Below, one piece after another: positions 110-33,104 of a stretch of 36,900 bases of DNA. The stretch spans positions 1-36,900 of the forward strand of contig ML002370.1 in the NCBI GenBank assembly GCA_003614675.1, written 5' to 3'. The notes beneath the pieces were generated by a model. The model saw only the letters and a program-made list of their open reading frames with translations. It made no database searches and was not told where the DNA came from. Every line of letters starts with the position of its first letter. Position 1 is the stretch's first letter. Made by a program: the position numbers and the translations under genes. The DNA is from Dimargaris cristalligena (lineage: Eukaryota).

Positions 110-674
110 TGGAAAAACGGCCTAGCCATTGAATGGCTTATAACTGGGTGGGAAAAGATGAAGACTGATATTTGGTGATGTTCTTCATCTTTTCTAAACT
201 AAAAATAGTTTGGCCGGGATATGCTATTAGGGATTAAGCAGGCCCGGCCACAACATCCTCTAATAATTTAACCTCCTGGTATCATAATTGGTTGAGAAAG
301 TTTTCCTCTTCGCTTAGATTCATATATGGCATGCCATAGTATATTTACTATAGTCGGTATGTATAGTATATATCGTTTACCTTCTTCCTATTCGGGCTCG
401 GCGCCAGGGTTCTTTTCCAAACTTGCCTATTTGTCCCTGGACGTTGGGCGTAATCGGGCTAAAAATGCAGCACATAACGCACGAATTGAAATCGATATTT
501 TCGGCTCATTTTCTATTTTTCCCTGCCATCCTTAATCCCACCCCCACACTGACTCTACTGTGTTTACTAAGGCAATTCTACTTTAGATTTTTTCCCCCGA
601 AACTTTCATTTTTTTTCTAAAACCTCATTGATCCCATTCTTGCATTTTATATACGCCATTATCATATTGTTATC

Positions 675-2045
675 ATGGCCCAGTCCGACCCCATTTACCT
701 CAACATCGAGGACTCGTCCAAGCCCACGGAAATCGAGAGCTACTGCATGGGCTGCGGGGAGAATGGCGTCACCCGCCTCCTTCTCACCAAAGTCCCACAT
801 TTCCGCGAGCTCATCCTCATGGCCTTCGAGTGTCCCCACTGCGGCATGAAGAACAACGAAATCCGGAACGGAAGTGCCCTTGCCGAGAAGGGCGTGCACT
901 TCGAATGCCATGTGACTGATGCCGCTGACCTCAACCGCCAGCTGGTCAAATCGGATTCGGCGACTGTCATCTTCAAGGAGTTGGACCTGGAGCTTCCCCC
1001 CAAGAGCGGTACTTTGACCACCGTGGAGGGTCTTATTAAAAGCGTGATGGAAGACTTGGCGGGCCAACAACCCGTACGAAAGGTCATGGAGCCGCAGGTT
1101 TACGAGAAAATCGAGTCCGTGACGCAGCAGCTGTCGGACTATCTGGGGCACCGCACCGATTTCCATGTGGTGGTGCACGACCCCGCCGGTAATAGCTACA
1201 TTGAGAAACTCAACTTCCCGGCCGAGGATCCTAAGTTGGTGGTGTCCCACTTTGAGCGCACCCATGCCGACGAGGTGGCGCTGGGTATGGTGGCCCCGGA
1301 TGATGCCGAGGATGAAGATAAACCCGAGGGCGAGGCCGCCGGGGGTTCGGAAGTCAAACCGGATATGGCGTACGACACCGAGGAACTCAACCCCGACGAA
1401 GTGATTCGTTTCCAAGCCAACTGCTCCCACTGCAACGCCCCCAGCGAAACCCGGATGCACCTCATGAATATCCCCCATTTTAAAGATGTTATTATCATGT
1501 CTACCGCCTGCGACCAGTGCGGCTACAAGAGCAACGAAGTCAAGTCCGGCGGGGCCATTTCCCCGCAAGGCCGTCGGATTACCCTCAAGATCGTCGACAG
1601 CGAAGATTTATCCCGAGATATTCTCAAATCGGAGACTTGCGGCTTGGTCATCCCCGAAATCGACTTGGAGCTGCACGCCGGTACGCTGGGGGGCCGCTTC
1701 ACTACGGTGGAGGGTATTCTGGTCCAGATCAAGGAAGAGCTCTTCGCCAACGCCCCCTTCATGTCGGGTGACTCGGCCGTGGAGGACCGTAAGAGCCAGT
1801 TCGCCCACTTCTTGGCCAAGCTGGACGATGTTATTGAAGGCCGGGCTTTCCCGTGCACCCTGGTTCTGGACGACCCCTTGGCCAACAGCCACTTGCAAAA
1901 CCTGTACGCCCCTGATCCCGACCCAAATATGACCATCGAGAATTACGACCGGACATTCGATCAGAATGAGGATTTGGGTCTAAATGATATCAAGGTCGAA
2001 GGTTACGAGAAATTGGCCGAGTCGGAAGCCAAGGTGGAGGAGTAG
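675..2045 (+). CDS. ZPR1: Zinc finger protein ZPR1 (eEF1A chaperone), 456 aa, intronless
   Basis: Two ZPR1 modules, each a C4 zinc finger plus A/B domain: IESYCMGC...PHFRELILMAFECPHCG and CSHC...IPHFKDVIIMSTACDQCGYKSNEVKSGG. Also DLNRQLVKS/DLSRDILKSET, TTVEG, DPAGNS/DPLANS motifs. AATAAA near 2094. Confidence 0.98.
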   Translation: MAQSDPIYLNIEDSSKPTEIESYCMGCGENGVTRLLLTKVPHFRELILMAFECPHCGMKNNEIRNGSALAEKGVHFECHVTDAADLNRQLVKSDSATVIFKELDLELPPKSGTLTTVEGLIKSVMEDLAGQQPVRKVMEPQVYEKIESVTQQLSDYLGHRTDFHVVVHDPAGNSYIEKLNFPAEDPKLVVSHFERTHADEVALGMVAPDDAEDEDKPEGEAAGGSEVKPDMAYDTEELNPDEVIRFQANCSHCNAPSETRMHLMNIPHFKDVIIMSTACDQCGYKSNEVKSGGAISPQGRRITLKIVDSEDLSRDILKSETCGLVIPEIDLELHAGTLGGRFTTVEGILVQIKEELFANAPFMSGDSAVEDRKSQFAHFLAKLDDVIEGRAFPCTLVLDDPLANSHLQNLYAPDPDPNMTIENYDRTFDQNEDLGLNDIKVEGYEKLAESEAKVEE

Positions 2046-3180: not shown

Positions 3181-5527
3181 ATGACTTTTACTCTGGACCA
3201 ACTCCGGAATTGTACAAAGGGCGAACTTCAGGAATTGTGTAGGCAGCACAATATGCCTGACAGAGGAAAGGTAAGCCGTCGGAGTTTCATTCTTGGTGAT
3301 TGGGAGCATCCCATTTGGCCCACTGGGGTAGTATGGGGGCCATGGTCGCTCCATGTGTTTTCTTCACTGCCTGATTCTGTTAGGGAACCCACTTTTGATT
3401 AATGGAAAAATCCCCTAACTTGCACCACCCGTCAAAGTCCTCCTTTTTTTGTGGGCCAACCATTGGGCCTGTTTTGCGACACTGTCGTTACACCCAGGGT
3501 TCCCGAGCCCACAACCACATATCTATACGTGCCACACGGATCAGCTTATTCATTTCCACTTATTTGCGCTTGTTTGATCTAACACGCCATTCATTATAAT
3601 TTCCGATAATTTACCATAGACATCCCATCTGATGGTGCGTCTTCGCTACTATCTAGAGGATCAATTGCCTTCAGTCTCGTCCTCGGCTACTAGCAGTGCA
3701 CCCACATCCCCCAAGAGCGATCACTCCAAAAGTTCCAACAGCTCTAGCAGCTCCAACAGCTCAGGAAGCGAATCTGAGTACGTAGATGCCACCGATTCTG
3801 GAGAGCCTTCCAAACCCAAGGAGGATATATCTACGAATCCCGTTCCAGAATCCCTTAAACTCCCCCAAACCCCCAATGCCAAGCCACCTAACAATCCCAC
3901 ATCCCCGTGCCTGACACCCGTCCAAATCCCCCCGCTTTCGCCCGGCTCCTTCACCCCCACTATGGCCCCGGCCGACTCCGTGGCCGACGAACTCCTGACC
4001 GAATTGCGCAAGCGGGTGTCCCGGGACATGGCTCTGAGCAAAGAAGAGCGCGCGGCCATCCGCCCCAAGGCCTGGACCGTGGCTCGTGCCACCGAAGCCA
4101 AGCGCTCGGTATTTCCCGGGGAACTGGAGCGGCCCCAGGAGATTAAATTCGAGACCATCCACCAGAAGCATTTTAATCAAATGGACTCGATTGCCCAGCA
4201 CTTCTCCCTTCGTAAACGCCCGGCTCCCGATTCCGAAACTCCCCAAACCGCCAGTCGCCGAACAAACCGTATAACTCAAGCGGCGGAGAGTCGGCAAACG
4301 CCCAGCAAGCGGCAGCGCATTGGTTCCGACCGAGCGACGCCCGGTGTTCGGAAAATCGATACCTCCCCCACTTTAACTCCCTCCTTGCCACCCGCGGCCC
4401 AGAAATCCAATCCCGCGCAGAAGCCATTAGCCCAGCGCTTTCGGGAACAGGAGCGCCTGCGACGCAAGACTATGAACCCCGCACTGATGCCAACACGGCC
4501 CAAAGCCACCCCCACTGTACAACCAACACGCAGGGCCCCCTTACCAAAACTGGCAGCCTCTAAACCCATTGCTGAGCCCCAGCGGCCCATTAAATCTCGG
4601 GCGGTAGAATCTGGCCCGAAAGAGAACGTACCACCTAGTAAAGGTACCACCAAACCACCGGTAGCACCGACAGCGACCAAACTGAAGCCAAGTGCCCCAA
4701 CATTTAACATGACCACCCGATCGCGGTTGGCCGCTGTCTCTCGTAAAACCCCAGCCACCACGGCCCCGACCAAACCATCAAAGCCCGTGGTGCCTAGTCG
4801 TGCTGGCGCGGAGCCACAAAAACCGGCGGTATCTAGTCGCGGCGTCTCCAAACCAGCCCTACCAGCCGTGACCAGTCGGCCAGTATCGAAACCAGCGAGA
4901 CCCGCTGTACCTAGCCGTACCCTAACTAAAACCATTAAACCAGCCGTGCCTACTCGCCCGACTACCAAGCCTCTCACATCCACTGTACATTCTCGCCCCG
5001 CCAGCACAAAACCATTAAAACCCACGGTACCTAACCAGGCCACTGCGAAGGCGAAGCCAACCGTTCTATCTGTCGCCAAGTCGGTTCCCCCCGTCCCCTC
5101 GCGGACTAAGCCCCCCGGGGCCACATCAGCGGCCAAGCCTGTTAAAGCGCCTCCCCCGGCTCGCCCCACCCCGGCCCGGACCGGCGCCATTCGGACCAAG
5201 AGTTCCGTCCCCACTGCCAAATCCATCGCCGCCTCGGGTACGTCCTCCGCCAAAACCGCTACTTCCACTACTTCAGCGGCCTCCGGCAAACCTGTGGTCG
5301 ACCGGCTTAGTCGGCGATCTACCATGGCTGCACCAGTTAACTCCCAAGGTACCCTTCAACGTCGCCTCTCATACCAACCGCCCCGTATGACGACCGCCCC
5401 GAAAAAGGCGACCGACCTCAAGCCTTCCTCAATAGGTACCTCCACATCGGCGCGCTACGCTCCTTACTCGACCAAAAGGCCCCAACGATCTGCAGTGGCA
5501 CCCGCTCCTAAAAAAGTAGAGACGTAA
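3181..5527 (+). CDS. SAP-domain, NuSAP/Mink-like basic Pro/Lys/Thr-rich protein; exons 3181-3270 and 3620-5527 (665 aa)
   Basis: Exon 1 MTFTLDQLRNCTKGELQELCRQHNMPDRGK ends at donor GTAAGC (3271). Branch CTAAC near 3579, acceptor TAG 3617-3619. The phase-0 join gives ...RGK-TSHLMVRLRYYLE, completing a SAP motif. Internal FETIHQKHFNQMDSIAQH motif, KEN box, many S/T-P sites. Confidence 0.85.
4769..5045 (+). repeat. Degenerate 13-aa (39-nt) coding tandem repeat, consensus about [TS]KPxKPAVPSRxx, about 7 copies
   Basis: TKPSKPVVPSRAG / AEPQKPAVSSRGV / SKPALPAVTSRPV / SKPARPAVPSRTL / TKTIKPAVPTRPT / TKPLTSTVHSRPAS / TKPLKPTVPNQAT. Confidence 0.85.
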
Positions 5528-6053: not shown

Positions 6054-9000
6054 TTAGTCGCTATCCTCGTCCTCGCTATCGTCATCGTCTTCCTCTTCAG
6101 CCTCGAGCAGCCAGTTGATCAAAGGTTGAAGCTAAGGCGAATATCGAGTAGATCAGAAATTATTCAGTGGTTAGTGATTCGTACCCCATTAACCCCCTTA
6201 TTTATACAAAGCCCGTATTGCAAAACCGAACCAGAATATTTTAGCAATAATAAAATCGGCAGAGCAATAGCAAACCAATTTCTGGTCCCAAACTAATAAA
6301 TGGCCTACCTTTTGGTGTAATAATAGTTCGCCGCCGGTGAGTTTCTCGGCCACCGCAGCCTGGTGCCACTGCAGCAGCATATCCTCTTCAACAATATCGG
6401 CATCGTACAACCGCTTAACACAGGGTAAGAACAGGTCGACACGGGCCCGGTCCACCAAACAAAAGTCCTTGACAATGGAGAGCGTGTCGGCCTGGTCCTG
6501 GTCGGAGTTCACCACACTGGCAATCAATTCCCCCCAACGCTGGAAGGCAGCCGCCAGGGAGGGCATGAGGTGGGACAGATCCACCTGGTCCAGAATCTTG
6601 GGGAGAATGATGATACGAATGTCGTGATTATTCTTGTTGTTGGCGAACCGGAGACCTTTGAGTTCTAGGAGAGTGTCAGCGATGGCGTGGCCCTCCGAGA
6701 AGGCCCGGTCAATGGTATCGGCCACTTCACTGCCGAAATGGTCGTACTCGTCGCCACTACCACCGACGTCATCCATATCTTCGAGGGAGTCCAGCGATGC
6801 TTCGGAGGCCGAATCGTCGATGTCTTGATCATCCATACGAATCTGGCCCAGATCGGCGGCTATTATAGTATCAGTAGGTGTCAAGCAAAGGGCAAATGGG
6901 GAGATATCGGAGTATGGAGTGAGACGGTTGCTGCCCAATCATATTTCCGTGATAATCGGCCATGAATAGTAACCGAAAAACTATAAAATCCACCAGAGTC
7001 GACACACTGCCAAGCTCAGACTACCCGAGCCATATCAATTACTTATAATTCCCAACTTACCTAGCGCGTTCACCTGGGATTGGTAAATAGCCTCTGCGTC
7101 ATCGTCATCCTCGTCCGAAGGCACCCAGATTACCGCATTACTCTCGGCTCCCCAACGGGAACTATCGACCACCGTATTATCTTCCGCATCGCTGTCATTC
7201 CAGTCCGAGTCCGCAGCAGCAGCAGCGGCGGCCTTGGTGGTTAGCCGGGTGTGGTCCGGGACACGAATTCCGGGGCCCACCACCACACCATCCCCCACAA
7301 TACAACCCTTACCGATTTGGGAGTGGGAGTGCACGGTGGTCTGATGACCCAAAATCGACCGTTCCACGGTACAATGAGCGGCCACGGTGGTGCCGTCCAA
7401 CAGATAGGCCCCCTGGATGGTAACGTGGTCCCCGATCTGGCAGTCGCGGCCAATTACCGAGTTGCTGATGATGGAGTGGTCCCCGACACTGGATCCCCGC
7501 CCGATGACGACGTTACGCTCCAGGTTCGAAGTCCGGGCCAGTTTGACCCCTGGTTCCTGGTAGACATGGTCGCGTTTGTGGACGTACGCATCGCCTTCCT
7601 GGAGGTTGCTTTCCGGGACCAACGGGAAGGTCCACCGGGCCATGACATCCCGACTCACGGCGTCGTAGAGCTGACCGCCCTGCACGCGGGCCGCGTAGGC
7701 GTGTTGGTCGGCGATGGGGTAAATGTAGAAGGTGGAATCCAGGACTTCGGACCCGAGGATACCGGTGACAAAATCGCGACGCAAGTCCTGGTAATCGAAG
7801 TTTTCGGTGAACAGCGCCGGCACTTCAACGGAACAAATGTCGATTTGGCAGTCCATGAGATCGTAGCGGAGTTGCAGTTGGGGATGCTTCTCGAAAAATT
7901 CGACCGAGAGGGGTACAGTGCGGTAACTGTCGGTACCCCGTCGCGGGGCGTGGTAGTGGATACACTGCTGGGTGCTGTCGTCAATCACGTAGACCGCCTC
8001 CTGGTGGCCGCGGGTACGGTGGTTCGGGGAGGTTTCCTTAACCACCATGGTCATGATGGCGTTCTTGTCAATGGCGCGGCGGGCCTTGTGGGCTTCGAGG
8101 GCCTTGGCCAGATTCATGTTCGATACCACGTCGCCGTAGATTAGAATGAAATCGTTACGGATGAGCGATTTGCCGTCCAGTTCGCGAAGGACGTCGCCTA
8201 CGGACATGGCCTCCTGGGTGACAATGATCCGCACTTCGAATGGAGAGTGGGACTTGCTCCATTTCGATTGACTGGTGCAGCGATAATAGGGCGGAGTAGC
8301 ATAACGTGTCCGGATGTTAGTCTTGATAGTCCAAGGGTCGGGTAAATTTTTAGCCTTATTTTCTTCATTAAATGGGTAATCTACTTAGATACATTGCGGG
8401 GGGGGGGGGCAATAGGTATTGCCCATATACGAATAATTTAAGATATAAAATAAAACAAAGCTTGTACTTACGCAATGTAGTCTTTGATTTTCTGGGCGTG
8501 GATGCAGCAGAAGATGAAAATCTCTTCAATGCCAGCAATCGCTAGTAATTCAAAAGTATATTCGATAAGTGGTACGTTGCAGAGTGGGAGCAGGCACTAG
8601 GGATTCAAGAATACACAGGCAGGTGACATAAGCGGTTTGGACAGGTTTAGTACGGGGTGTGTGGGCGGGGGGAGGGACCCCTATTAGTTGCATGAGTTAT
8701 AGCTAGTCAAATGACCCGACTGTTAATCTAAAGAGGTTCCAATGTCGTTAATGGGCCGGAGCTAGTGAGTGACCCTCACGAGTATATATTCGGCCGTTGG
8801 GACAGCCTGGCCTGGCCTGGAAGGCTTGGCTACGACCCGCTGAGCCGAATGCAGTCGAGTTACTTTAGAACCCGGCGGTACGGAATCTGGGGCCCACTCG
8901 ACTGGATCGGAATAGGTCAAGGGCTTTGCCCTGGTCGAGGGAATTGGCCTCACCGACTCGGCTCCAACCCGAGATGGACTTACTCGGGGGGTGGTTTGGG

Positions 9001-9100
9001 TTAGGGGCATCATTTGCTGGTCGAAACTGTCGGCGATCATGACCACCGACAGCTTCTCCTCCGCCTCGATGTTCTGTTGCTTGGGCTTCTTGGGGGGCAT
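6054..9100 (-). CDS. GCD6: Translation initiation factor eIF2B epsilon subunit; exons 9100-8984, 8596-8472, 8271-7061, 6859-6309, 6131-6054 (693 aa)
   Basis: Four GT-AG introns (donors GTAAGT x3, GTAGGC) join in frame. N-terminal nucleotidyltransferase-like domain (ADSF...PR/CLLPLCNVPLIEYT; SVGDVLRELD; IYGDVVSN; DCQIDICSVEVPALFTENFDYQDLRRDFV). Then left-handed beta-helix hexapeptide repeats (SNSVIGRDCQIG) and a C-terminal W2 domain (LYDADIVEEDMLLQW ... PLINWLLEAEEEDD). Confidence 0.96.
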
Positions 9101-10186
9101 TATAGACGAGTAAGGACTACAAGGTAAACGACAATTTTTAACCGAGATTCAAGTCGAGAAGTAAAGTAAAACGCAACGATTGTGAGTGGTGAAGTAATGA
9201 GCCACCCGAAAAAAATGGAAGCTGGCAGTAGTGTGCTGCTGACTGGGGAAATTCACTTGGGCTGTGTTTGGAATTGGTCTGGCCATGTACATGGGTCTCG
9301 GCATGGGATAGGAAGGCCGGTTAACTTCCAAGCTGGTCTTTATCTAGTCCAGTGAAATTGACTTGGATAAATTAGTGGAGTGGCTATGATATATAGGTCA
9401 ACCGTATTTGGTGACCCATAAGCCATTGCTTAACTTATACACTGTTTTATAGTTGGCTACTTGTGCAAGACTAAGAAGACCCTATATCAAGCTTTTCAGA
9501 TACCATTTCCTGCTCTCTCTCTGGCCCATGTTGATAAATCCCCAGTTGTTATATGTATATAGGGCTAAAATAACGTCTTTGTTCTTGATGACTAACTAGT
9601 TTTCGAAGATTTACATTCCTGCTGGCAGATTAGGCATCTATGAGGCTAACACTACTTCTTTGATATTTATATCCCCATGCTACTATCTTTCGCAGCTAAC
9701 CATACAACAACCATCTAGCTCTTCCAACTGAAAGCACCCTCTGTGCTTCTTTGAGGGGAGTGTTATTAATGCTTTACTTCCATGGATTTTATCCACCTGT
9801 AATGGCCAATACCCAGCCCCCTAGTAATTTTTGGCCTATACCTACCATATATTTTCGTACCAGCTGACTGTTACAGAGGTGTGACCACATTGGGGTTGCT
9901 ATACAGTTGTATATGCATCAACTAATGGGGGATTTGATCAAGGCCAATCACTGTGAAGGAAAATAGATCCCTTTTCAAGGCTACTCATCAAAATGTAAAG
10001 CTTCACAATGCACAGTCATGCTGAAACAGGCCTGTGGGTGTATGGCCAATGAATACATTTTCTAATTTTTAAAGGGCCAGGATAGATGGCCAGTGTAGAC
10101 AGAAATAGGGGCGGGACTGGAAACAATGACATCGGAGTTTTGGTACTAGTCTTTACACAGCAGGTCCATAGTAACACATCATACTT

Positions 10187-15174: not shown

Positions 15175-16937
15175 CGATGATTTTGACTGCAGCTTTGTCT
15201 CCTTAACCAGCCTTGCGTTCATTAATACTATACCTGGCTGACCTGCGATAGTATCGTCGTAAATGGCTTGCGTATTACAAAATAAAGGCACTAGCCAGAT
15301 TAACAAGTAAAATACTTATAAATGTAATGCGTTAGAGACTGACAAGAGAGTATCCAGGTGGTTATACCACAGGAAAGGGGCGACCTCCCAGTCTAGCCTA
15401 TTGAATTGGGTTGTTGGGTATTCTATTACTGTATCACGGACACGGCTAGTTGATGGTCGACCTACATTCAAGTATATCAGTACGCGTTTACAGTATAGCT
15501 TTGCTGCCACTTCACTATACTATACTACTTGCACACCCACACCTTTTCTTAGTCATTAATTGATTTCCCAAGCGCCCCTCCCTCTAATGCATTACCCCGA
15601 ACCTGGCTCCATTCTGATCACATGACCATATATGCCTTTCTGAGTCATCCTCACCTTACTGTTTGTTGTAGCAGGCGCACCCCCTCCCATACGACACAAC
15701 TTAATGATTTAGCTATATCCCTGTTTAGGTACGAATTTACAATAATATTATTACGCGACAGTTCTAAAGCTGTGCTGCCTATTTAGCTAGTTTGTCCAAT
15801 GGTTAGATCGGATCTATTGGTCTACACACTATCCCAAACCCCCAACAACCGAATCTAAACAGAGAAGGCCCATGCTTCATTGGCAGCCAGCTTCTTTTGT
15901 TGGTGGAATGTTATTTGTCCTGGTCGTCTTAGGGATTGCACTTCGCGATTATGGCATGGGATACACTTGCAAGAATCCGATTGTAGGAGTGCGTGAATGG
16001 ATCCCAGCCGGTACAGTGGAGGTTAAAGACATTGGAATCTTAAATTAACCGACATTCATAAGATGCACTCACTCCGTACCAATTCAACAATAAGTTAGGG
16101 AAATAGAAGTGGAATTCGGGCAGATGTGTACATTCGACGTATTCTCTAATCCGCCGCTGGCCAATGGGAAGACCTATTGTTGAGCAGGACAGGTCAGCCA
16201 ATCAGTCTTTCCATATAGGGAAACAGTAAACAAACCGAAGTTAGGAATGGAAGCGCAACTGTACCTGAGTGGTATATTTATGTTTTTTCACTCCCTCCAT
16301 TGTCAGGGGCCGCTCCGTCGCTACCCCTCAGGAACAATGGGCAGTGGCCTCTCCCCTACCAGTGTTGATATACTACCCCGCTCAACTTCCACAGCGCCGG
16401 TATCACCAGTTAGTTCCTTTAACCCATTTGTTGGCCTGTCTATTCTTCCACTAATGATAAGTTCAAACGCCACCCGTAAAACCTTCTTTTCCACTCTGCC
16501 GTATTCCGTCCGACGAGCCCCCCCGTATAGCTTATAGCGAGCTAATCTGCCCCGTTTATTAGTCACGCTTCCCCTTTTTGTGCTCTTTTCAATCCCCCTC
16601 CCCGTCAAATTAGCTCTCAGACACGTAGACCACTGTGTCCCGGGCAAACGACCCGATTCCTACATCTCATTATTCGGTTTATCTTACCCTCCGAAGCCCT
16701 TTCCACGTTGTACGATAGCAACCCCGCTTTCCGACCTCCGCTTCAAGGCGTGTCTATCGATTCCCTCATATTCCATTGTTTAGCCCCCCCTGTCCTACTT
16801 CCCTTGGTTGGGACCAATACCCGTCCTGCTCAGCTAGGAATTAACGGCCGCTATTGGTTTGTCCAACGGAGAAGCAGTCTCCCCTCTACTACGTTTTCCC
16901 GTGCCCCCGCTCGGTCGACTGCTAGCTTCTATTTACT

Positions 16938-19900
16938 ATGAAAAAGTTCCTCGGAAAAATTAAGAGGCGGCGGAAAGACAATAACAACGGTGACGACGAC
17001 GACGACGCTGGCCCAAGTAGCCTGACGGAATCGCTGGACTTGGCCGAGCCCGTCTCACAGTACAGCAGTCGCGAAGGCGCCAGTGTCGCCTACGATATCA
17101 GTGGAGCTATAGTCAGCTCGGCCATCGAAGTTTTGGATTTAGCTGGCTATCCCTCCTACCGCCCTGCCGCCGGGTTCATCCCGTTAGAATCGGCCACTTA
17201 CCCCCGGTTAGCCACCCACCCTGCGAGTGATATAGCCGGTTCCGTATCCCAGAACTCGTCCCAGGGCCCGAATACGCTCGATCAGTCATCGGTAGCTACT
17301 CCGGAACTGCAACGGTTCGAGGCCCGTTTTTTCACCCCGTCGACCCGCCCTGCCCACCCAAGCAGTCGCAATCGCCCCTTGGCCTCAAGTGCCGAGCTTT
17401 TATTGCGCTGGGAACGGCTCCTGGAACAAAATCGGGCCCGCCCAACGGTTTCGGCGACATCTTTGGGGGCACCCGCGTCGCAGGGGGCTTCCTACGCCGA
17501 AACCGTCTTTCCATTATCGGGTCGCCGGCAATATCCGGCTCCGACCACTGATGAGTCTTCTCCACCGGTGGTGACTTCCTTAACCATCGCCGAATCCGAT
17601 GCCACGCCCCAGCAATCCATGTTATCCACCCAATCATTACAGAAATCTATCCATGGGCTCAGCGAATCCCCCTTGGGCCTTCGGCAGTTGCCTGTGGCCC
17701 GGTCTCCTACCCAGCGCCGGGTATCAGCTCCTTTTCCCGTGACCCACGCACCATTATCTCAATCGGATCCCCACCAACATAACACTCTTCCCGGCCGGTT
17801 TCCCTCCGGGTCAGCAGCTAATCCCCAGCTCCGTCTGGATAACCAACGCCTAGTTAAATTTGCGTTTGAAGAGGCCCGACGACGCATCACTACCAAAGAT
17901 GGCCAGACCGTCGAGGTTCCATTGGAACGGTCCCGGCCCGAGGATATGACTGACGAAGAGTGGGAACTGTACGGTCGGCACATCAAGGTACCCATCATGA
18001 CGCCCGTCATGGAAGAAATCCCCATGCGCGAAAAATACCCCCTGCGACATGCCCGGGAACTCCACCGACGTTTATCCCAGCCGTCCTTGGATGAGGCTAG
18101 CTCGTCTAATATCCTGGGTGAATTGGGTCGAGCCCAGGATCCCACTACCCATGAACCGGGCCAGCGACCCAAGAAACCCCGCCATCCACTAGATGAGCTC
18201 TACTATGCGGCCGCCGGGTCGTCCTCGTCCTCAAAGTCTTCCGCAGCCGAGTCCCAGCCGGGCACGGTGCGTGAACACCCATACATAGTTCGCCGGAAAT
18301 CCCTGGCCCGTGCCCAACTCGACATGACATCACCAGTACCCGATACCACTCAGCACCCAAGTGCGGAAGCGGAATATTCCCCGCCGGCCTTTTCAGAACC
18401 CGAGTCAGAACCCGAGGCCCAGACGTTTGACGAAGCCCTTACTCAAGAACCAACCCCAACGGTTTCCCGCCGCAATGCAACCTATACCCCTGAGTTTATG
18501 ACCATTAACATGGGTACAGATGCCCCGTCGTTTAGGCCTACTTCTCCAACCCTACCCCAGCCATTGCCATCAGCTCACTATCAGGTTGCCGGTGACGATG
18601 GTGAGTATCACAATTCATCGACAACGAAATACCCGCCTTTCCAACTCAGCCTCGACCACAGAGAGCCGCTCCAGCCTTCGCCAGTGGTTGGCCGACGGGC
18701 CACCTTCGTCAGCCCAGTCCCCGCATCCCGGGTACCGATTGGGGCTGCCACCCCCTCCTACCATGTCCCCGAACTAGCCGAGGCCTTCGACTCTCTAGTC
18801 GTTGAAGAAATCCAGGGCTCCTTCGTTGGTTCGCGGCCACTGCGGGCGGACAGCTTCAGTTCTATGCAGGCGCGCCCCCTTTCCATGATGGGCGACCATC
18901 CTTCGTTCTCCCCGTCGGCCCGAATCCAACGTGCTCGATCAGCTTCACAGTCCAGTATCCAATTGGGGGTGACCCCCCCCCATGTGTTACCCCCGGAAGG
19001 CACCGTCCCGCAACTGGTACGGGCCTACGACGAGTACCACGAAGATATGCGGGCATCGACACCCACCCGCTTCGCCAGTCGACCCGAATCGCCCTTCCAA
19101 CGGGCCCAGTCCCGACTTTCGATAAGCTCCGGCACCGCTCGGCCTCAACTACCGGCGAACCATATGTATGGGCCTCCGCCCCCGGTTTCGTCGCAATTTT
19201 CATCCTATATGGCCGAGGGAACCCTGCCGTCTCAATCGGCAGGCCTTTTTGATCAAGCGCCCGGCGACTATATACGGCCGCCGCTACCCCTTTTTCAAAC
19301 GGAGGAACCGTACTTTTCGCCCCAAGGGTCATTCGGCGACCCCGGGCGTGGCCGTCAGCGAAGTTCGTCCTCGCCCTTTAATAATTCCTCCTTTGAGGTG
19401 AATCTAGGGGATGCTATAGTGGTAGACCCTAGTACTACCCTTTCCCGCAGATTATCCCGCTACCACTATAATATTGATCCAGCATCGTCCCAACGGCGTC
19501 AACAGCAGCATCAGCAGAAGCAACAGCAATCCCAAGCCCCTGGTGTACCATCAACTTCGTCCTTTTTGACCGAAACCAGCTTGGCGCTTAGTCCGGGGTT
19601 AGCCCCCGTTAGGTCGGGCTATCTTGTCGGAGAGTCATCTGTTGCGACAGTCCCCGTAGTGGCGCGTCTGGTACACCATGCCGAGCGGTTCAATTCGGCC
19701 GCACGCCAGTCCGCTGTTCCGGTTCCAGCTGAACCCGCCTTTATTTCACTGGTAGAACCACCATTACCATTAGCCCCGGGAATGGCACCCGCCACTGATA
19801 CCACGTATATGCCTAACGTGCCTTCTTTTCAAGAGGAAATTCCTTCTTCGCCGCCATTTCGCCCTAGCTTAGCCCCGCCGGCTGATGCACCGGAATCTGT

Positions 19901-22900
19901 CCAAGCTAACCCTGCGGCTTTACGCCCACGCTCACCACCCCAAGCAGAAGTATCCTTACCCCTTCCCCCCCTTTCTCCGCCTCCGCCTTCGTTCCCAACA
20001 CCCTCTCAACCCTCTTCTTCAGTTGTAGCACCCCCAGCGCCAACACTACCCCCGCTTCCCCCACTTCACGTCTTGGAGAGCACCAAGCGCGAGATTCTAG
20101 CTCGGCGGGCTCTTCGACTTAACAACACCAGTATGGCCTCGGTCGCTTTTTCCCGAGACACATTACCAATCGGCAGTTCTTCGACTCACATTGCCCGACC
20201 CTTGTTCACGGGGGATATCTTATCTTCTACAATGGAACGCGTCCCGCCCCAATTACCGTCCCAGACTTCCTCCGTGTCCCCGGAGGTGCACTCCCCGTCG
20301 GCTAACCAGAGTGCCTCTATTCGCCTCGGTCAGCTCTTCTCGGCCCCCGATCCGGAATCCCCCCTTCCACCCCGTACCGGTGATACTAGTAGTGGTCCTA
20401 ATAACGAAAAAGATGATAATCGGCCTACCTCTGATTCAATACTAAACAGCACCGAACTGTTGGAAACACCCTCGCCCGAGGACAGCGCCCCCACCCCGGC
20501 CCGGCTGAGCCATTTAAGTATCAGCAGCCATGATGTGAGTAAATTGTTTCCGAGTATGTCGTCCATCCCCGAAGTGTTTCGCCCACCCCCTAATTTTGTT
20601 CGTCAGCCGGCGCGCCGACCTCCTAAGCCTATAGAAACTGTGCCAGAGGAACGTCCGGAACCGAGAACCTTTGAGACTTCACCGCCTCCGATGCCGATGC
20701 CCGAGCCAGAGCTTGAGCTGGAACAAGAACCAGTAACTCTTGTTACTATTCCTAGTCCGGCCTACAATGACGGGCCGGTGATGAATCAACAGTTGGAGCC
20801 AGTGCCAATGTCCACGGTGATACCAGAGCCAGAGTTGGACAACCAAATGGAACCGGAACCAGAGCCAATACCGGAGTTCATTTCAGAAATTGACCTTAAC
20901 CCTGCCCCGATTTCGGATCCGGCGTTTAACTCCCAACGGATGCCTGAACCTGAGCAAGAATCAAAGCCTATACCCATGTTTATGCCGGAACCCGAACCCG
21001 AACGCCAATCGGAACCAGAACCAGAGCTGGAACCGGAACCAAAAACCGTACATATGTCGCCATCAATTCAACAACGGTGGTCCACTGATTATTACCCACC
21101 TAGACCGACCATCGCGGCTCCCGTACCAACTGCCACGGCCACTCCACCATATTTCCCTCCAAACCCCAGTGTGGTTATTTCCTCGCCCATCCCTCAATAC
21201 AGTACCGAGCGTTACCGCCCTATGCCGTCGTGGAATGCTCCATCGGACCCCCCGCCCCTTCCTCCGTTGCCTAAATTCGTCCTGGACCAGATGTCGTATC
21301 AGGTCCCCGTTATTACCGTTAGCTCCCCCCCGTCGGATATGCGCACGCTTGAATCCATCCGATCCCAGCTGGGCTCACCGAATGCTTCCACCCCCTTGAT
21401 TTTGATCCAACCTGCCACCCCTTCCCCTAAATTCCCGGTTCATAATGACGACGACCCCCTCCCCGGCTCCGCATCGCAGTTTTCCCTGGGCGCCGCCAAT
21501 CTTTTAGCTGTGCCCCAAATGGACCACGGAGGCTCGTTTACCAGTGATTCGGATATGGAGTACGAGTCGGAGGTACCCCAGTATTATTCATACGGCCCGC
21601 CTCCCCCGCTCCCTCCCATTCCTGCCCATTTCCGGCCCTACACTATGACGTCGCCCCCGATGGGACCGAGTAGAGCGACAGTGGACGGCGCCGCCATCAC
21701 TAGTGTACCACTAGAAATGCCGCAAGCTACCGGCTCCAAGTTACCCATCTACCACGATACACCCGAGCATCACAATTCCGCTGAGTTTGCGACAGCACCC
21801 AATTCTACCCGCGTAGTCAACCAGCCTAATTCATCGTCTGGATTCCAAACCCCGCCGCCGCTTTCACCACCCGCCCCTCTCAATACCTTACCCCCAATGC
21901 CTATGCCAGAGCCCGAGCCAGACCATGAAACGAAGCAACCGGCCCAGTCAATGATGTCTCTGGCGAATGACAGTGCGACGGACTTGGGGGCCGACGGGCC
22001 GTCGATTGACCGGCCGTTTTCTACACCTGAAATCCCGATGGATCATCCAACCGACCCCTCTCCTCTACCCCCCGCTCCCCCTCTGCCTCCTCCTCCAGCC
22101 TCCTTACTTAGGGAAATGGCCATGGAAGCCCAATCCATGGCTATGCCTGGACCTCCTAGTCCCACTGTATTACCCCCGCAACTTCCCCCTCTCCCACCGG
22201 GTGCCATACCCATCTCCCCCGATGAGCCTTCTACGCCATCGCTGTTGGCCGCTGAATTACAGGCCAAATTGATGGAACAGAACGGAGTCTATGTGTCTCC
22301 CCTGCGCCAACTAAGAGCCGGTAACCATTCAGCTACATCGATATCGATCTCGCCGGTGCAATCACCGACAGGTCCCCCGTCGTGGTCACATCCGACAGCA
22401 CCGCCCCTCTGGAATCCATCGGGACCAAGTAATGGCCCCGCTTTACCATCTTCGCCTCAACACCGTCAGTCGTCGCCGCGCATATCATCACCCCTACGCC
22501 AGTCCCATTCGGCAACGTTCCAAGGGGCTGGATCCCGGGTGAACTTATCCTCATCCTTACCATCGACCCCCACACACCCCGGTCGTACCCAGTCTTTCAT
22601 TGGGCCCGGCACTCCCCCACCCCTCGAGTTAAATTCGAGGTATTCGTTGGCGGCGTCGGGTTCGGTCCAAACCCCACCGGTACCGCCGTCGGGGCCGACT
22701 ACTTTCTCGGGCTACGAACGGCCGCTACCTGCGGCCCCCGGATCTACCAATATGCCCACCCAGTTTACACCCTCTGGACGGACTTCCCAAGGACAGGAGA
22801 CCCCCTCTCCCTTCTCATCGCCTGCCCGGCCCCCTCTTTCCCCCCAATCCGCAGTGGGGCTCGTCTCTCCCCCGGGGGAGGGACCACTCTCGGGAGGGCC

Positions 22901-25900
22901 AGGCGATACAGGGTCCCTCCCTTCATCTACTAAAAACCCCGCCGTCCAGCCCGGCTGGGAGGGCATCATGCCCATTGAGGTGAAGCACGAACCCGGGTAC
23001 GTGGTGGGTCCCCCAACAGAGGAGTTCCTGCAGAGCCAGCCGGGGAACGTGTTCAGTAAAGTAGCCAAACGACTCTGGCGGGCCGTGACGGGTGCCCCTA
23101 AGAAACCCTATCCCGCCGAATCCCTCAATTCGTCCTTCCAGCAGAGTCCCGAGTGGCACGATGACTTGACCGACTCGGAACACGAGATTTACCATAAAAT
23201 GGGACCATACGATCATCCATTGGCGGGCCTCGGGGCCGGATTTACCGGCCATACAAATATGCCCATGCCTCCGGTCCTTTCCCCTCCACGCCTGCCGCCA
23301 CCTCCCCCGCCGCCCCCTTCCGGGCCCCCCGGTGACTACGCCGACGATGAAAGTGACCAGGAGTCCGATTCCCGGCGCCGTATCTTGGCCACCCAAGCGG
23401 CCCTGTCACTTATGGCCAACGAAGGGGATTACGACCCCTACGTGATTCCCGATCAGGACAAAATCGAAGTACCGCCGCTACCCGAGAGTCCCTCCCCCAG
23501 TAGTCGACGCAAGAAGGTAGCCCGCCTATTATGGGAGGGTCGCTTATCGGCGGACCATGGGCCTGACGTGGCCCAACTCCCGTGGATGAAAGACACGGCA
23601 TCCAAACCGCCCTCGATTCATTCGCAACGACCTTCACTTTCTTCCAATGGGACTCAGATTGTCCTCCCTGAGCCTTCTTTGCCCTTTATTCCACCCCCGC
23701 CCCCGCGTATCCCCCAATCGCCCCACTCGTCGATGCATTCCGGGCGGCACACAAATATGCCCTATCCTTCAATGTACATGCAGGTACCCGCTCCGGGTCC
23801 GGTTTCGGCGGGACCAATGCCCATGCACATGCACATGCCTATGCCTATGTCACCGTTACCACCACCCCCACCGGTACGCGTATCGACGAGTAGAGTGGGC
23901 CTGCCAACTCCAATGCATATGTCCCATCAGCCCGGACATACCCACCCAATGGATGGTTCCGGGGCTTTACCATCTCCACTCCCTCCCCAACTTCATTCGG
24001 CGGGACCGCCCTCCCATCTCCCACCCCCGCCTCGACCCCCACCTCCCCCACCGGGCGATGACCCAGCCCCATCGTCTGGCGAGGGTGAGGGCGAGGGCGA
24101 CGATGCCGATGAACCCAGTACCGATAGCTTCCGGTCCCAGGGCACGATTCACAAGACCACCTCGCCACCCGGTTTAATGAGCTCGATCATCTCACCCCTG
24201 CTTAGCCTGTTTGGTAAATCGCCGGCCCCGGGTGCAGCTGGCTCCGGTCACGGTGATTCGGCGCATTCGTATAGCCAACTGCCGCCGGGTAATACGGGGG
24301 TACCTATGGAGGGTCTTGATGCTTCACCCGCTATCCCTCTACCCGGACAGCTGGCTAACCAAGCGGCCCCGCCTTCGCAGCCACCACCACCACCTCCTCC
24401 TGGTACCTATTTTGATGCCTTCGCCAACGACGATGATGACGATGAAGGCCACCACGGTGATGGCCATGGCCATTTTGGTTCGCAGGCAATGCCCGAAGGT
24501 CCCATGGGCAGTCAACTGGGCTCCAAATCTTTCCATAATCCGGCCATTTTCCCCGAGCCAACCATCGGAGTCAGCCCACCCCTCCCATCTTCGTCCACCG
24601 GCGGTATTTTTACCCGCCTGTTTAACAAATCCTCGGCCTCGGGACCGGAGCCTATTCCGCTGGAGGAAACGCGAATGAGTAAGACTCCACTTCCTTTAGA
24701 TGGCTCTATGATGGCTATGCCCGAACCCGAGATTCTGGACGTAACGTCACACCAACCCGATAGTATGCCCATGCCGTCCATCGATCACCACGGTCCCTTC
24801 CTGACCCCTAGTGAAGTGAAGCGTACCCATAGTCGCCCTCCCGGTGGAGGAGGAGGCGGTGGTGGAGGTGGGGGTGGGGGACACAACGATGATGACGCTG
24901 ACTCGATCGGTAAGGACTCATCGGCGTTTACCGAGTCCCCTGGCTGCTGCGGAGAATGGTGGTCCAATTTGACGGCAGGAATTCGGGCCGGCGGTACCCG
25001 CTATGGACTAGTGGTGACACCTGCCGGTGGACAGACCCTCAAGCGTTTTCAGGCCCTGGCCCTCCCGCTTTACTACCGAGATGTAGATAACTACCTGGCC
25101 GATTTTCCCCACGCCGTATTTGACCCCATCCCCCCTACATCCGAACAACACGACCATCCCCCCTCGGGTCAACGATCCCCGAGTTCCCCCCGCGACCGAT
25201 CCGTGACCTCCCCGGACTCCGCGGCCCACGCCACCTCGGATACAAATCCGGATCCACCGATTAACCGCGATACTTCCCGCAAAATATTATCCGAGGACCA
25301 GGAGGACGTCATGTTTCCCCCGTTCAACGTCCTGCCGAAGCACGCCACCGTCGATCTGCTCCGCAACAACGGCGGCAATTTACGGAAAGCCAGCGGCTGG
25401 TCATTTGGCACCTCAGTCCTGTACACGGCCATCGAAAACATGACCCTACTGGGAGTGATGTCGAACAATCTCACCAAACTCGAAATCATCCGGGACTTCC
25501 TGCAGCTCATTTCCGTGTATCTGCAATCCATCGACGAGCATGTCCGCACGGCACTGTCAATTATCTTTAAGGATATCCCCCAATTTCTCAGTTTAAATTG
25601 GTCCGACACGTGGGGCAAAGCGATTGTGTTCTTGATCGCGTTTAGTGTGGTGGTCTTCATCGCCGTTTTCACTTTCCGCATGACCAAGAAACGGGTACCT
25701 GATGCCGATGCCGAAGGGCTCGAAGTCGAAACCTGGAATATGCACAGTCGGCGTAATTCCCGCGTGCTCAATATCATTGTCGTATTTATTATTACCACAC
25801 TTTACCTGCCCCTCTCCAAATTGGCTCTGGAAGCGATCGTGTGGGACGACAAATACTGGGCCGTTGACAACCCCTACATCCAAAGCGATAATCCGGTGCT

Positions 25901-28283: not shown

Positions 28284-29566
28284 ATATTTCCTCCGGTTGG
28301 TTTAAAGGATACATGATCGGGATTCACATATTTATATATATATAATTCATTATTTTTACTCAGTAACTATGTTGCGCCACTGCGCAAGTGTTATCGGGTT
28401 GACCCCAGGCAAGCCTGGCCGTGTTTTTTTTATCGAACATTTGTTTAATGAGGTGTTTCCGATGCAGCAATATGATGATCGTTTTACCCTGTGTATTTTA
28501 TCTTGGTTATATCTTGTTAAGAAGTATTATTCGCCTCTAATTGCTGCTCTTGCCCAGCAAGGCCATTTCCTCCGTCCCTGCCGCATTGTGTACTGTAAAT
28601 AATAAATCGATTTTTTTCTGGGACAAGACCGACAGTCGGTTGAATGATTTTGATTATTGAAGGTTCTGCCAATTCGGGCATTCCTAAATCCCAATTGCCA
28701 CGCCAATTACGCTTGTCAGTTTATCTGGTACATACCTGGCCAATTGATCGGCTGGGTATGATACACCTTTATTCATCTCCTCATTCCAATCCACTTACCG
28801 AGCCCATTGAGCTGGGTGTCAGATTATGTATTCCCTTAAGTTATCTCCCCATTGATCTCACACCAAAGGCCAGTTTCCATCTACCATACATGTTCGTGAT
28901 GTTTTAAATATTATATTCCGGACAGCTAGCTGTGAGTGTATGTTATAGTTTTCTGCCTAGGGATACCTACGTAACGAGTAATCAAGTATCTATCAATCCG
29001 CTTTGGTTGGCAGAATTTCTTTGTAGTCGAGAAGGGCTTTTATTCGTAAAGAGCCCGCTAATATTGCTCAACTAATGTAGTGCTGCTGAAATTTCCACCA
29101 CTAATAGATTGGCCTGCTGGGCTTACAAGGTTGTTGTTGTCCAACCATGGGCCTTTTTTGCCTGCGTAAGAGGAGCAACTTTCTACCTCGTGCTTCTTAC
29201 TAATAAGCTGGACCAACCGCAACTAACCTACCGACAATCACGCCATTGCACCCAAAAGAAGGGCCACTTCCCCCAGTGGATCAACCGCGATTCTCTGCCA
29301 GGGGGTTTACAGCATCAGCTGGATTCTTTCAACCGCATACCACCCTCACCCAACAAGACTCTTCTGTACGCCTTACTTGACCTCCCTGTTGCCGCGGGTC
29401 CATTCCTAAATGTAGTCACCCCCTTCTATTTATTATTTATATTTATATATACTTGTTTTTCCCCGCTTCATCGACTCTCCAAAACCCCCATTCGATCCAA
29501 GCCCTTGAACTCCGGGTAGTCTTTCCCAGTATTTAGTCTGCTCGGACCCCTTCGGTCATTATAGCC

Positions 29567-31456
29567 ATGCTAGCCCGGTTGCGTTTAGCTCGCCTTCAGG
29601 CCGCGGGCCTCTTTCTGAGGCACCCAATGACTGCGACACCTCCGCTACGCTTCTACATCTCCTTGCGACATCCCCTTCAGCGTCCCGGGACCACTTCCGC
29701 CCTAACACGCACCATAGTCCGACCCTCCCTATTCATCCGCCCCCGACTCGCTGGCCGGTTTTATTCCTCGAAACCTCTACCCGCCGAAGGTCTATCGCGC
29801 GGCCTTCGGTGGACGTTACGACTGACCGCCGCGGCCGCCATTTCCGGCCTTCTCTATTACCAGTACGAGCCCTTTCGGTATTTCGTGAAGGCTTCGGCCC
29901 GTTGTTACCGGGCTGGAATAGCGGGGTTGATTACCGCCATTGATTACAAATGGGCCCTGCGACACCGTCCGGATCCCGCCCTGGATCCGCATAAATTGAT
30001 CGCGGATGGCCAGTCGGTGGACCCCGACGCGGCCCTGAAATGGCAGCAAGCGATGCTAGTCTATGAAACCCAAAAATCCGAAGTCCACCAACGGTCGGCC
30101 CTGCGGGTCCTTCGGTGCTTGATGAAAAGCGGCGGTATTTATATCAAGCTGGGCCAACACCTCTCCGCCATGACCTATATCCTTCCCAAGGAATGGACTG
30201 AAACCATGCGGCCTCTGCAGGACCAGTGCCCCGAGTCTCCTTTAGAGGACCTTGACCAGCTAATGATTGACGACCTGGGGCAGTCGCTCGAACAGCTGTT
30301 TACAGAATTTGACCCCCGTCCGCTGGGAGTGGCCTCCCTTGCCCAAGTTCATCGGGCCGTGCTGCGGGAGAACGGCCAGGAAGTAGCGGTCAAGGTACAA
30401 CATCCCTACCTAGACGAGTTTTCGAAGATTGATTTGCGAACCGTCAGTCTCATCATCGGACTGGCCGAGGATTTATTCCCCGAGTTCCAGTTCGGTTGGT
30501 TGCGCGACGAAATGAATGTCAGTCTGCCCCAAGAGCTGGACTTTGTGCGGGAAAAGAATAACGCCCAGCGGGTGGAGCGTAATTTCGCCGACGTGGCCCG
30601 CTGTCCGCTGGCCATCCCCCACGTCTTTTGGGCCCACCGGCGGATCATGGCCATGGAGTACATTAATGGTAGCCGAATCGACGACAAGGCTTACATGCAG
30701 GCCCATAAAATTAACCCCGACCAGGTGGCCACCGAACTGACCCGGATCTTCTCCGAAATGATTTTTATCCACGGCTGGGTGCACTGTGACCCCCACCCGG
30801 GCAACATACTCGTCCGCACCGCCCCACCTGCGTCCTCGGCGCGTTCGGGCTATAATTTCGAAATCGTTCTCCTGGACCACGGGTTGTACCGGGAATTATC
30901 GAGCGAATTCCGCATGAATTACGCTTACATGTGGCGGGCCCTCATGGCTGGGGATGAAACCGGTATCCGGCGCTACAGTAAACTGCTGGCCGGCACGGAC
31001 CTGTACATTGTGTTCTCGTGTATTTTGACCGGCCGCGACTGGCGGGTCATCCAAAACGACCTCAACCAGGCCCTCACGGACGATGAGGTGAACACGGTAT
31101 TCGAGAAGGTGCCTTACCTACTGGTCGAAATTATCGACGTATTAGCAACTGTACCCCGGGAACTATTGCTGCTGTTCAAGACCAACGACCTACTGCGGTC
31201 GGTTGACCAGTCCATTCGGAGTGCCCCCTCCCCTGCTATGACCATGGCGATCATGGGCCGCTACTGCACCAAGGCGATTTATAACGAAACCATGTTCTAC
31301 ATTAGACAGCACGCCCGGATCCTGGGCTACACCTGGTCCCTTCTGGGCCAATGGGTCCGCTGCCAGTGGCAGTACTGGCGACTGGAACTGCCCCTTGAGG
31401 TGGTGGAGTGGTTCTTCCATACGTACTCCCGCCTTTACCGCCTCCTATGGCTATAA
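29567..31456 (+). CDS. MCP2: UbiB/ABC1-family atypical kinase, ADCK1/ADCK5 (yeast Mcp2/Cqd2)-like, mitochondrial, 629 aa
   Basis: GGIYIKLGQH (KxGQ), Ala-rich loop GVASLAQVH, VAVKVQH, ELDF, HCDPHPGN, LLDHGLY, LLLLFKTNDLLR. Arg-rich presequence ending RFYSS, followed by a single TM helix. Confidence 0.9.
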   Translation: MLARLRLARLQAAGLFLRHPMTATPPLRFYISLRHPLQRPGTTSALTRTIVRPSLFIRPRLAGRFYSSKPLPAEGLSRGLRWTLRLTAAAAISGLLYYQYEPFRYFVKASARCYRAGIAGLITAIDYKWALRHRPDPALDPHKLIADGQSVDPDAALKWQQAMLVYETQKSEVHQRSALRVLRCLMKSGGIYIKLGQHLSAMTYILPKEWTETMRPLQDQCPESPLEDLDQLMIDDLGQSLEQLFTEFDPRPLGVASLAQVHRAVLRENGQEVAVKVQHPYLDEFSKIDLRTVSLIIGLAEDLFPEFQFGWLRDEMNVSLPQELDFVREKNNAQRVERNFADVARCPLAIPHVFWAHRRIMAMEYINGSRIDDKAYMQAHKINPDQVATELTRIFSEMIFIHGWVHCDPHPGNILVRTAPPASSARSGYNFEIVLLDHGLYRELSSEFRMNYAYMWRALMAGDETGIRRYSKLLAGTDLYIVFSCILTGRDWRVIQNDLNQALTDDEVNTVFEKVPYLLVEIIDVLATVPRELLLLFKTNDLLRSVDQSIRSAPSPAMTMAIMGRYCTKAIYNETMFYIRQHARILGYTWSLLGQWVRCQWQYWRLELPLEVVEWFFHTYSRLYRLLWL

Positions 31457-33104
31457 AGGGTAAATATGGATAGTGAGTGGTGGCTAGATTTTATATAATT
31501 TCTTGTAGATTGTTGGGTCCAATTGCCATTTGTATCGGGATTGTTTTATTATATATGTGTGTTTTAATGAGAAACGGTATATAGGCAATTACCAATCAAT
31601 AGATTAAACGTGTATGATTGTTGACGTGGTCACAGATATGTATGGTAATCATTGTCATGGGACATTTTACGTGGTCATAAGACTTTAATATATCAATTAC
31701 TTGTATCCTTCACTCAGTGCAAATACGCCGATTATACCATCAATTTTTGAATCTAAACGAACCAAAATACTTATATAGTGGCACTAAATCTGCTCTGTAA
31801 CTGGGTTAATATCTGGTGATATATCCCTTGGGCCTGTCTACATACTGCAGCCCATATAGATAGATACACCTGCGACGCTTTGTCTGTTGTCTAGTATTTG
31901 AGTATTCCGTGTTTAACCACTCGACAATTCCCACACAGAGCAGCACGTTGCCAGCCACTTCCACCTGAATTCGCACTTAGGGAATGAGCCTGGGGTTTGG
32001 GGAATTCAAAGCCCTCCCTCCAAGACCCGGAATCCACCGGTACCCCTTAAGAGACCGCTGCTATAAGGCAAGTGGGAGAAATAGCGGTTGTCTCTCAGGT
32101 GGTGTCAGTTGGCCCTTTTCGATGGAGTAAAACCACTCTCCTACTGACGGCTCACTACACCAGTGAAACTCCAGAGGTTTGTGAATCGATGAATCACGCG
32201 GCATAGAGTAGTATAGTACACCACAAATGAATAAATTATTCGGGCCGCCCGAAAAAAAGAAGGGAGTGGGAGGGGTGTACAGAACTCACTAACTGTAGGG
32301 GAGAGTGCTCGGTTGGCGGACTTGCAAGTTTATTATCACTACAACGCCAAGTCGCCAATGGATGTGACGGGGTGTCGTCGAGTCAAGTTGGCCGCTTGGT
32401 GCACGGGGTCGGCGGGTGAATCAGTCTGTCTATCTATCCTTGGGGAGGGGAAATCTGCCACAGATTTAATTCTCGGCGTGTAGATAATGATGTGACAAAA
32501 GAATGGGCCCACCAAGCATCGAGGTCACATGCACCAGCACTATTGGCGGCCAGGCCAGCAGGGCAAAATCGGCCCGTTAATCATTCGCCCAAGTGGATAT
32601 GGTCTGACCTTACTACTGCTGCGAGAGGAGGAGGGAGGCTAAGGCGGGGCAGGGCGCATATATGCAGTACACTCCAGCATAGAACGAGTGAATGCGCCCA
32701 ATCCAACCCTCCTCCCCGTGACTTGTATCCTATTACACGCCTAGCTCCGATGGCGTGTTGCTCTCTATATGCTGTCCCTGACTTCATATCATAATAAATT
32801 CCTCTCACTACAAAACACCTCTCTTCCATCCATTTCTTTCCCCTTACCATTCACTTCCCCTTCCTTTGTTTAGTCACACCACTTCCGCACACACTATAAA
32901 TACTCGACCCCGCCCACTCTACGGCCGCCGCTGCATTTTCTTATTCTCCGACTATCCCCGACTCCCGCCCTAAATTTTTATGGTCAATAATTATAGAGGA
33001 CCTGGTCCCCCGGGCTGCTAAACTCGACCCATTCAGAACTTATATTGATTGTTATAGCCAAACACCCCTCTTTCACCCAATTAGTCGCATCCACCCGCCC
33101 CACC

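Follow-up and report, generated by a model that had tools for sequence, protein, structure and literature searches.

The closest described systems to the gene considered here are two spindle proteins, animal NuSAP (NUSAP1; Pfam family NUSAP, PF16006) and budding-yeast She1 (Pfam family Msap1, PF17077). The gene itself lies at positions 3181-5527 of the window, by which we mean the whole stretch of 36,900 nucleotides (nt) analysed, positions 1 to 36,900 of contig ML002370.1 in the Dimargaris cristalligena assembly GCA_003614675.1. NuSAP carries a SAP domain at residues 10-44, a nuclear localization signal (NLS) at 194-211, a microtubule-binding region at 243-367, a KEN box at 384-390 and the ChHD at 410-430 (PMC12173916), and a second source gives Mink as its equivalent (bioRxiv 10.1101/2025.05.19.654801). 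For She1, PMC5584168 describes two adjacent motifs near the N terminus, PISH1 and PISH2, removed by deleting residues 1-89 and 1-126, respectively, and together needed for normal Sli15 binding and for holding Ipl1 off the metaphase spindle; residues 194-338 provide microtubule binding and salt-sensitive cross-linking. She1 has been said to have "no clear homologue in higher eukaryotes" (PMC8684761) and is reported absent from Cryptococcus (PMC6392335), and only functional analogues, MAP4 and MAP9, have been proposed for it (PMC8684761, PMC6392335). Our literature searches, which covered few subscription papers, found no paper naming She1 and NuSAP together, none that dealt with fungal NuSAP as judged from titles and the opening lines of abstracts, and nothing joining Nsk1, She1, NuSAP and fission yeast.

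We consider the window gene, with a probability of roughly 0.85, to encode a divergent fungal member of the NuSAP family that is present in one copy and works on the mitotic spindle. The predicted spliced product of 665 amino acids (aa) runs from a SAP domain through a helix and the motif F-x3-H-x3-F-x2-MDSI-x2-H to a basic tail of 441 aa. Like animal NuSAP and Drosophila Mink, it has an N-terminal SAP, a central motif, an NLS-like patch after the motif, a candidate KEN and a basic tail. Unlike them, it is much longer (the last NuSAP domain lies at 410-430 in PMC12173916), its KEN is mid-protein, its C-terminal motif is decayed, no charged C-terminal helix is seen and its score stays under the Pfam cut-off. 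With She1 it would share a pair of adjacent motifs in the N-terminal part and, after them, a C-terminal region for microtubule binding and cross-linking, as PMC5584168 describes for the yeast protein; She1, however, has only 338 aa, no sign of a SAP domain was seen in it, the window match to its model is under the cut-off, and astral-microtubule dynein inhibition is known only for She1. The features of the gene are as follows.

3181-3270, plus strand: exon 1, 30 codons with the ATG at 3181; carries the first part of the SAP domain and is not in the NCBI protein of this species (P0001)
3271-3619, plus strand: predicted intron, phase 0, 349 nt, GT-AG (GTAAGC...TAG)
3620-5527, plus strand: exon 2, 635 codons plus stop, open throughout
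3620-3655, plus strand: SAP domain, second helix (aa 31-42), placed by alignment to the Tieghemiomyces protein P0125, which exceeds the Pfam SAP cut-off with 27 bits
3980-4018, plus strand: motif 1, a conserved helix aligning to the Msap1/She1 model from position ~27-28; candidate PISH1
4145-4216, plus strand: motif 2, F-x3-H-x3-F-x2-MDSI-x2-H, aligning to positions 27-46 of the NUSAP model and 76-98 of the Msap1 model; candidate PISH2
4202-5524, plus strand: basic Pro/Ser/Thr-rich tail, 441 aa, isoelectric point ~12; candidate microtubule-binding/bundling region by comparison with the She1 C terminus and NuSAP
4298-4318, plus strand: TPSKRQR, a putative cyclin-dependent kinase (Cdk)-type site that runs straight into a basic patch resembling an NLS
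4433-4465, plus strand: charged stretch R-x-R-x-QER-x-RR, kept in 4/4 Dimargaritales rows
4619-4627, plus strand: KEN box candidate, by sequence match
5351-5383, plus strand: candidate for a decayed C-terminal NUSAP motif, aligned to relatives (pairwise E 0.008), in which the motif is intact

The NuSAP assignment is carried by the nearest relatives. With window 3965-4225 as the query, HMMER was run over the full set of 1.84 billion proteins and gave four matches at E<=0.001: the protein itself and those of Calocera (P0122, 3.3e-7), Dispira (P0123, 7.6e-6) and Tieghemiomyces (P0124, 5.6e-4), the last with P0125 as cluster mate. The Pfam cut-offs are 26 bits for NUSAP, 23.9 bits for SAP and 27 bits for Msap1; all three nearest Dimargaritales relatives exceed that for NUSAP (P0123 26.8, P0124 39.8 and P0125 40 bits), and full-length P0125 also exceeds that for SAP, while the Calocera protein matches neither NUSAP nor SAP. 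A 34-aa C-terminal stretch of P0124 alone matched NUSAP with E 3.1e-9 at model positions 216-244, so that this is a second real motif and not composition bias; the label "ChHD-like" was dropped for this motif, as it maps to 216-244 of a 297-position model and presumably lies upstream of the ChHD. Aligned to P0125, the window protein shows 34% identity across 187 aa (E 2e-21); a further, weak block of similarity (E 0.008) coincides with the C-terminal motif. The window protein shares with P0123-P0125 helix 1, motif 2, TPSKR, the charged stretch, a candidate C-terminal motif and probably the intron, TPSKR and the last R of TPSKRQR being invariant in 4/4 Dimargaritales rows; the relatives differ in passing the NUSAP cut-off, in having the C-terminal motif intact and in lacking KEN. 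Judged by orthology to relatives above the cut-off, the window gene is a divergent fungal NuSAP and a decayed member of a clear NuSAP group, whose orthologues P0123-P0125 are named only "hypothetical" or "SAP domain-containing".

The original prediction had taken the gene for a probable NuSAP homologue and expected a profile search with its motif island (4142-4204) to recover the family. Segments of 24, 31 and 52 aa indeed match Pfam NUSAP with E of 0.011, 0.0038 and 0.0063, all under the cut-off, and thereby recover the central motif at model positions ~25-49. As controls we used 21 prokaryotic pattern matches that looked like chance, of which 13 translated to the motif and 7 were stop-free and scanned; NUSAP or Msap1 was found in 0/6 and 0/7 chance frames with the same fixed residues (0/13 together), some of the controls being mutually related and some short. 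The island, the TPSKRQR patch and the KEN at 4619 are all where that prediction had placed them. Its picture of otherwise low-complexity surroundings held less well, given the helix at 3980-4018, the charged stretch and the C-terminal motif.

Several observations weigh against the NuSAP assignment. The island scores only 16-17.5 bits against a cut-off of 26, whole exon 2 gives no NUSAP match at E<=10 and P0001 gives none either. The C-terminal motif (model 216-244) is undetectable in the window by Pfam or by a two-sequence profile, and the KEN box, present as predicted, is missing from all three nearest relatives. No animal sequence was returned by the word-seeded, profile (best 120 of 1346), full HMMER and PDB searches. 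The pattern used to find the loci described below was modelled on a NuSAP-like motif, and NUSAP matches among those loci were thus partly selected for; the segments scanned are related and not independent. Further searches added little: word-seeded searches recovered no protein other than that of the same species, PDB sequence searches gave 0 matches, window 5240-5524 had no Pfam match, and a genome search with PF16006 and PF17077 found none, the control genomes giving none either.

The N-terminal SAP would be restored by splicing, as the original prediction had proposed in noting that a list of open reading frames misses it; splice signals, alternative junctions and the alignment to P0125 all support this. 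The donor AAG/GTAAGC at 3271 is followed by a branch-like CTAAC (3579-3583) and the acceptor is the first AG after it, ending at 3619, whereas unspliced read-through from the ATG at 3181 meets a stop after 73 codons. Exon 1 alone matches SAP_new25 (E 0.0046) and SAP (E 0.01), both under cut-off, and the N terminus spliced at 3271/3619 aligns to the above-cut-off SAP of P0125 with 14 identities in 38 columns; among 32 open in-frame GT-AG combinations, this option scored best (60, next 49). The NCBI model P0001, from which exon 2 differs at 4 of 631 aa, begins at Met 3632, downstream of the intron, and is without SAP. Taken at face value, that model would mean that the intron is not real and that the gene starts at 3632 with no SAP, which we regard as very improbable: donor, branch and acceptor are all consensus and best among the 32 options, SAP is found in the Tieghemiomyces orthologue and in 11 of 13 basidiomycete-type loci, and the P0124 model has its junction at the same residue. 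Compared with P0125, P0124 opens a gap exactly there, suggesting the same donor in Tieghemiomyces, and the similarity of Dispira P0123 to the window begins near the acceptor. The public models P0123 and P0124 have lost SAP partly or wholly at this junction; with P0001 truncated there too, the intron appears to mislead gene callers repeatedly. We thus retain a SAP-splitting intron at 3271-3619 as the predicted structure. The gene is single copy in the Dimargaris genome, the sole other match (E 0.63) containing a stop.

The original prediction had described the family as one usually known from animals; the kinship with NuSAP stands, but the wide spread of the family in fungi and the additional match of the motif to the She1 model had escaped it. 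A degenerate island pattern found at least 117 metagenome loci, of which 89 had a stop-free motif, full flanks and an open frame of at least 95 codons; one (L095) was left out as AT-rich with unconserved flanks, and the rest were reduced to 47 non-redundant loci. Island positions outside the fixed pattern are conserved in these (K in 46/47, a downstream R in 46/47, an upstream R in 40/47), and the island is therefore more than chance. The loci fall into two types, one like Calocera (YA, basidiomycete-type) and one like Pezizomycotina (P/A), their taxonomy being judged from likeness to named proteins. With a profile made from the SAP domains of the window and P0125, 11 of the 13 YA loci with enough DNA proved to have a SAP on the strand of the motif, 1.25-1.35 kb upstream of it, and 0/35 P/A loci had one; nine of the 11 were scanned with Pfam, SAP being the best match in 9/9 and above cut-off in 4. 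A hand-written regular expression for SAP found nothing in 25 loci, whereas the profile did.

The motif profile matched 1346 of 8000 scored candidates, with E<=3.2e-19 for the best 120 of 1346; the named proteins among those best 120 are Pezizomycotina, many labelled "erythromycin esterase". We reject that function: the esterase domain (PF05139) is absent from the window and from seven other Pezizomycotina members scanned, and occurs only in P0080. In that Talaromyces stipitatus protein, the erythromycin-esterase domain (aa 63-417) is joined in front of the family protein; P0080 probably results from two gene models having been merged, and the wrong name of the family probably goes back to it. 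In the ESM Atlas, three Ascomycota "erythromycin esterase" clusters appeared at 0.78-0.79, which is a lead only, and nothing was found with the 38-aa island. These hypotheticals resemble the window protein in central motif, basic tail and KEN (75/120 of the best 120 of 1346), and differ in lacking SAP and in having terminal motifs of their own. KEN is present in 77/125 family proteins against 10.3 expected by shuffling, 120 of the 125 being related ascomycete-type rows and not independent, and the tail beyond the motif is net positive in 125/125. Separately, the SAP-less Pezizomycotina-type proteins (P0002-P0121) carry an N-terminal RRSxR[LI] in 45/120 and a C-terminal RLxxLAxPK in 78/120, with a shuffling expectation of 0. 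We take the former to resemble a nucleosome-binding arginine patch and the latter a microtubule-binding repeat, and it is possible that they replace SAP and the C-terminal NUSAP motif. Calocera viscosa P0122 has three tandem copies of the central motif, at aa 322, 392 and 461, consistent with a modular docking motif.

At the level of sequence, these comparisons demonstrate a NuSAP-type family that spans Zoopagomycota, Basidiomycota and Pezizomycotina, with SAP kept in basidiomycete-like loci and missing in Pezizomycotina. The decay of the C-terminal motif in the window would also suit a protein whose NuSAP ancestry is real and whose spindle role has been lost, leaving a basic-tailed SAP protein of fungal chromatin or RNA processing; many nucleic-acid binders have SAP domains and disordered basic tails. 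We find this rather unlikely: both characterised families matched by the motif work on spindles, and Pezizomycotina members keep motif and basic tail without SAP (0/35 loci), which makes SAP the dispensable part. A spindle protein of the NuSAP family thus remains our reading of the window gene.

More importantly, however, the island scanned alone gave exactly two Pfam matches, to NUSAP and to Msap1, the model of yeast She1. The E values for Msap1 are 0.033, 0.0024 and 0.0032 for the 24-, 31- and 52-aa segments; for the 31-aa segment, these are the only two matches among 24,736 Pfam models, and both are spindle proteins. The register is fixed, NUSAP model position 27 pairing with Msap1 position 77, and with the upstream helix added, the window match covers Msap1 28-101 at E 0.0013. 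Across the family, short motif segments matched NUSAP in 25/48, Msap1 in 13/48 and the next family in 2/48. For longer segments (n=45, from 43 loci and parts of P0123 and P0125; matches counted at E<=1), the counts were 19/45 for NUSAP (best 2.9e-4) and 12/45 for Msap1 (best 5.2e-4). By type, Msap1 was matched in 9/14 YA and 1/29 P/A segments, and NUSAP in 13/14 and 5/29. Helix 1 and motif 2 were colinear along Msap1 ~27-99 in 11 of the 12 Msap1 matches. The link is one between Pfam models only, no She1 or animal sequence being among those compared.

These short amphipathic helices could still match Msap1 by chance or convergence, with the gene a NuSAP homologue and She1 a separate yeast invention. 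Helices of this kind give weak matches to a large number of models, the Msap1 scores all lie within 12-20 bits and so below the cut-off of 27, unrelated families recur too (DUF3502 in 4/44, SRP68 in 2/44), and the Pezizomycotina-type segments that so seldom match Msap1 are, of our set, the closest to yeasts. Against this stand the two spindle models singled out by the 31-aa segment, the colinearity over both helices, the high share of basidiomycete-type segments matching, the fit of the She1 layout with its two N-terminal motifs and C-terminal microtubule-binding part, and the fact that Msap1 matches, unlike NUSAP matches, were not selected for by the search pattern. On balance, we think coincidence the less probable explanation and take it as fairly probable that NuSAP forms an ancient family common to animals and fungi and retained in most of the latter, and that She1 is its SAP-less member, with PISH corresponding to the central motif and upstream helix. 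Helix 1 and motif 2, aligned colinearly to Msap1 27-101, would then be the counterparts of PISH1 and PISH2. As the Msap1 cut-off is not reached (window best 18.4 bits, family best 19.7), the window gene is not classed as She1.

The likely role of the protein, judging from its motifs and its described analogues, is that of a nuclear microtubule-bundling spindle protein tethered to chromatin. The TPSKRQR patch may direct nuclear entry, tunable by Cdk phosphorylation, and the long basic disordered tail may bind the acidic microtubule surface electrostatically and bundle spindle microtubules, by analogy with She1 194-338 (PMC5584168); the SAP domain would tether the bundles to chromatin, as in NuSAP. 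A folded domain for the central helices is unsupported, AlphaFold giving two separate helices for a 97-aa core (pTM, the predicted template-modelling score, 0.27; mean pLDDT, the predicted local distance difference test, 66.5) and Foldseek 0 matches with that model; docking motifs of a disordered protein would be expected to look like this. The two helices could be a protein-docking module, and the Aurora-B passenger complex is the most likely partner, if a tentative one, proposed because the PISH1/2 region of She1 is needed for normal binding of Sli15/INCENP. As for the KEN, it is an even bet that it serves removal by the anaphase-promoting complex/cyclosome with Cdh1 (APC/C-Cdh1) after mitosis.

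The NuSAP-like gene lies between two ordinary genes, ZPR1 and eIF2B-epsilon, and the other features of the window are given below with them.

621-2045, plus strand: ZPR1
6198-9148, minus strand: eIF2B-epsilon, multi-exon
29537-31456, plus strand: ABC1 atypical kinase (Pfam)
32997-34568, plus strand: alpha/beta hydrolase (Pfam)

Further along, positions 16926-28283 of the plus strand hold a 3785-codon open frame with no Pfam match at E<=0.001. Some 2750 Pro/Ser-rich aa come first; the ~1000 residues after them are more hydrophobic and include a likely membrane stretch. Scanned separately, the last 785 aa gave no useful match.

Overall, the fungal NUSAP assignment itself is only modestly new: the Dimargaritales relatives pass Pfam, and some proteins of early-diverging fungi probably carry the NUSAP label already through automatic annotation. 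It does, however, name a large misannotated fungal family and correct a truncated gene model, and, if NuSAP and She1 are one family, the "erythromycin esterase" hypotheticals would supply the She1/NuSAP that is missing from filamentous ascomycetes. The main worth of the finding lies in bridging the NUSAP and She1 models, a link that we consider fairly probable: a protein of an early-diverging fungus that joins the two makes the question of She1 homology directly testable. If the bridge holds, yeast She1 genetics, with its dynein inhibition, Sli15/Aurora-B control and spindle cross-linking, would predict roles for human NUSAP1, a protein studied as a cancer marker, and raises the question of whether NUSAP1, too, binds INCENP or restrains dynein.
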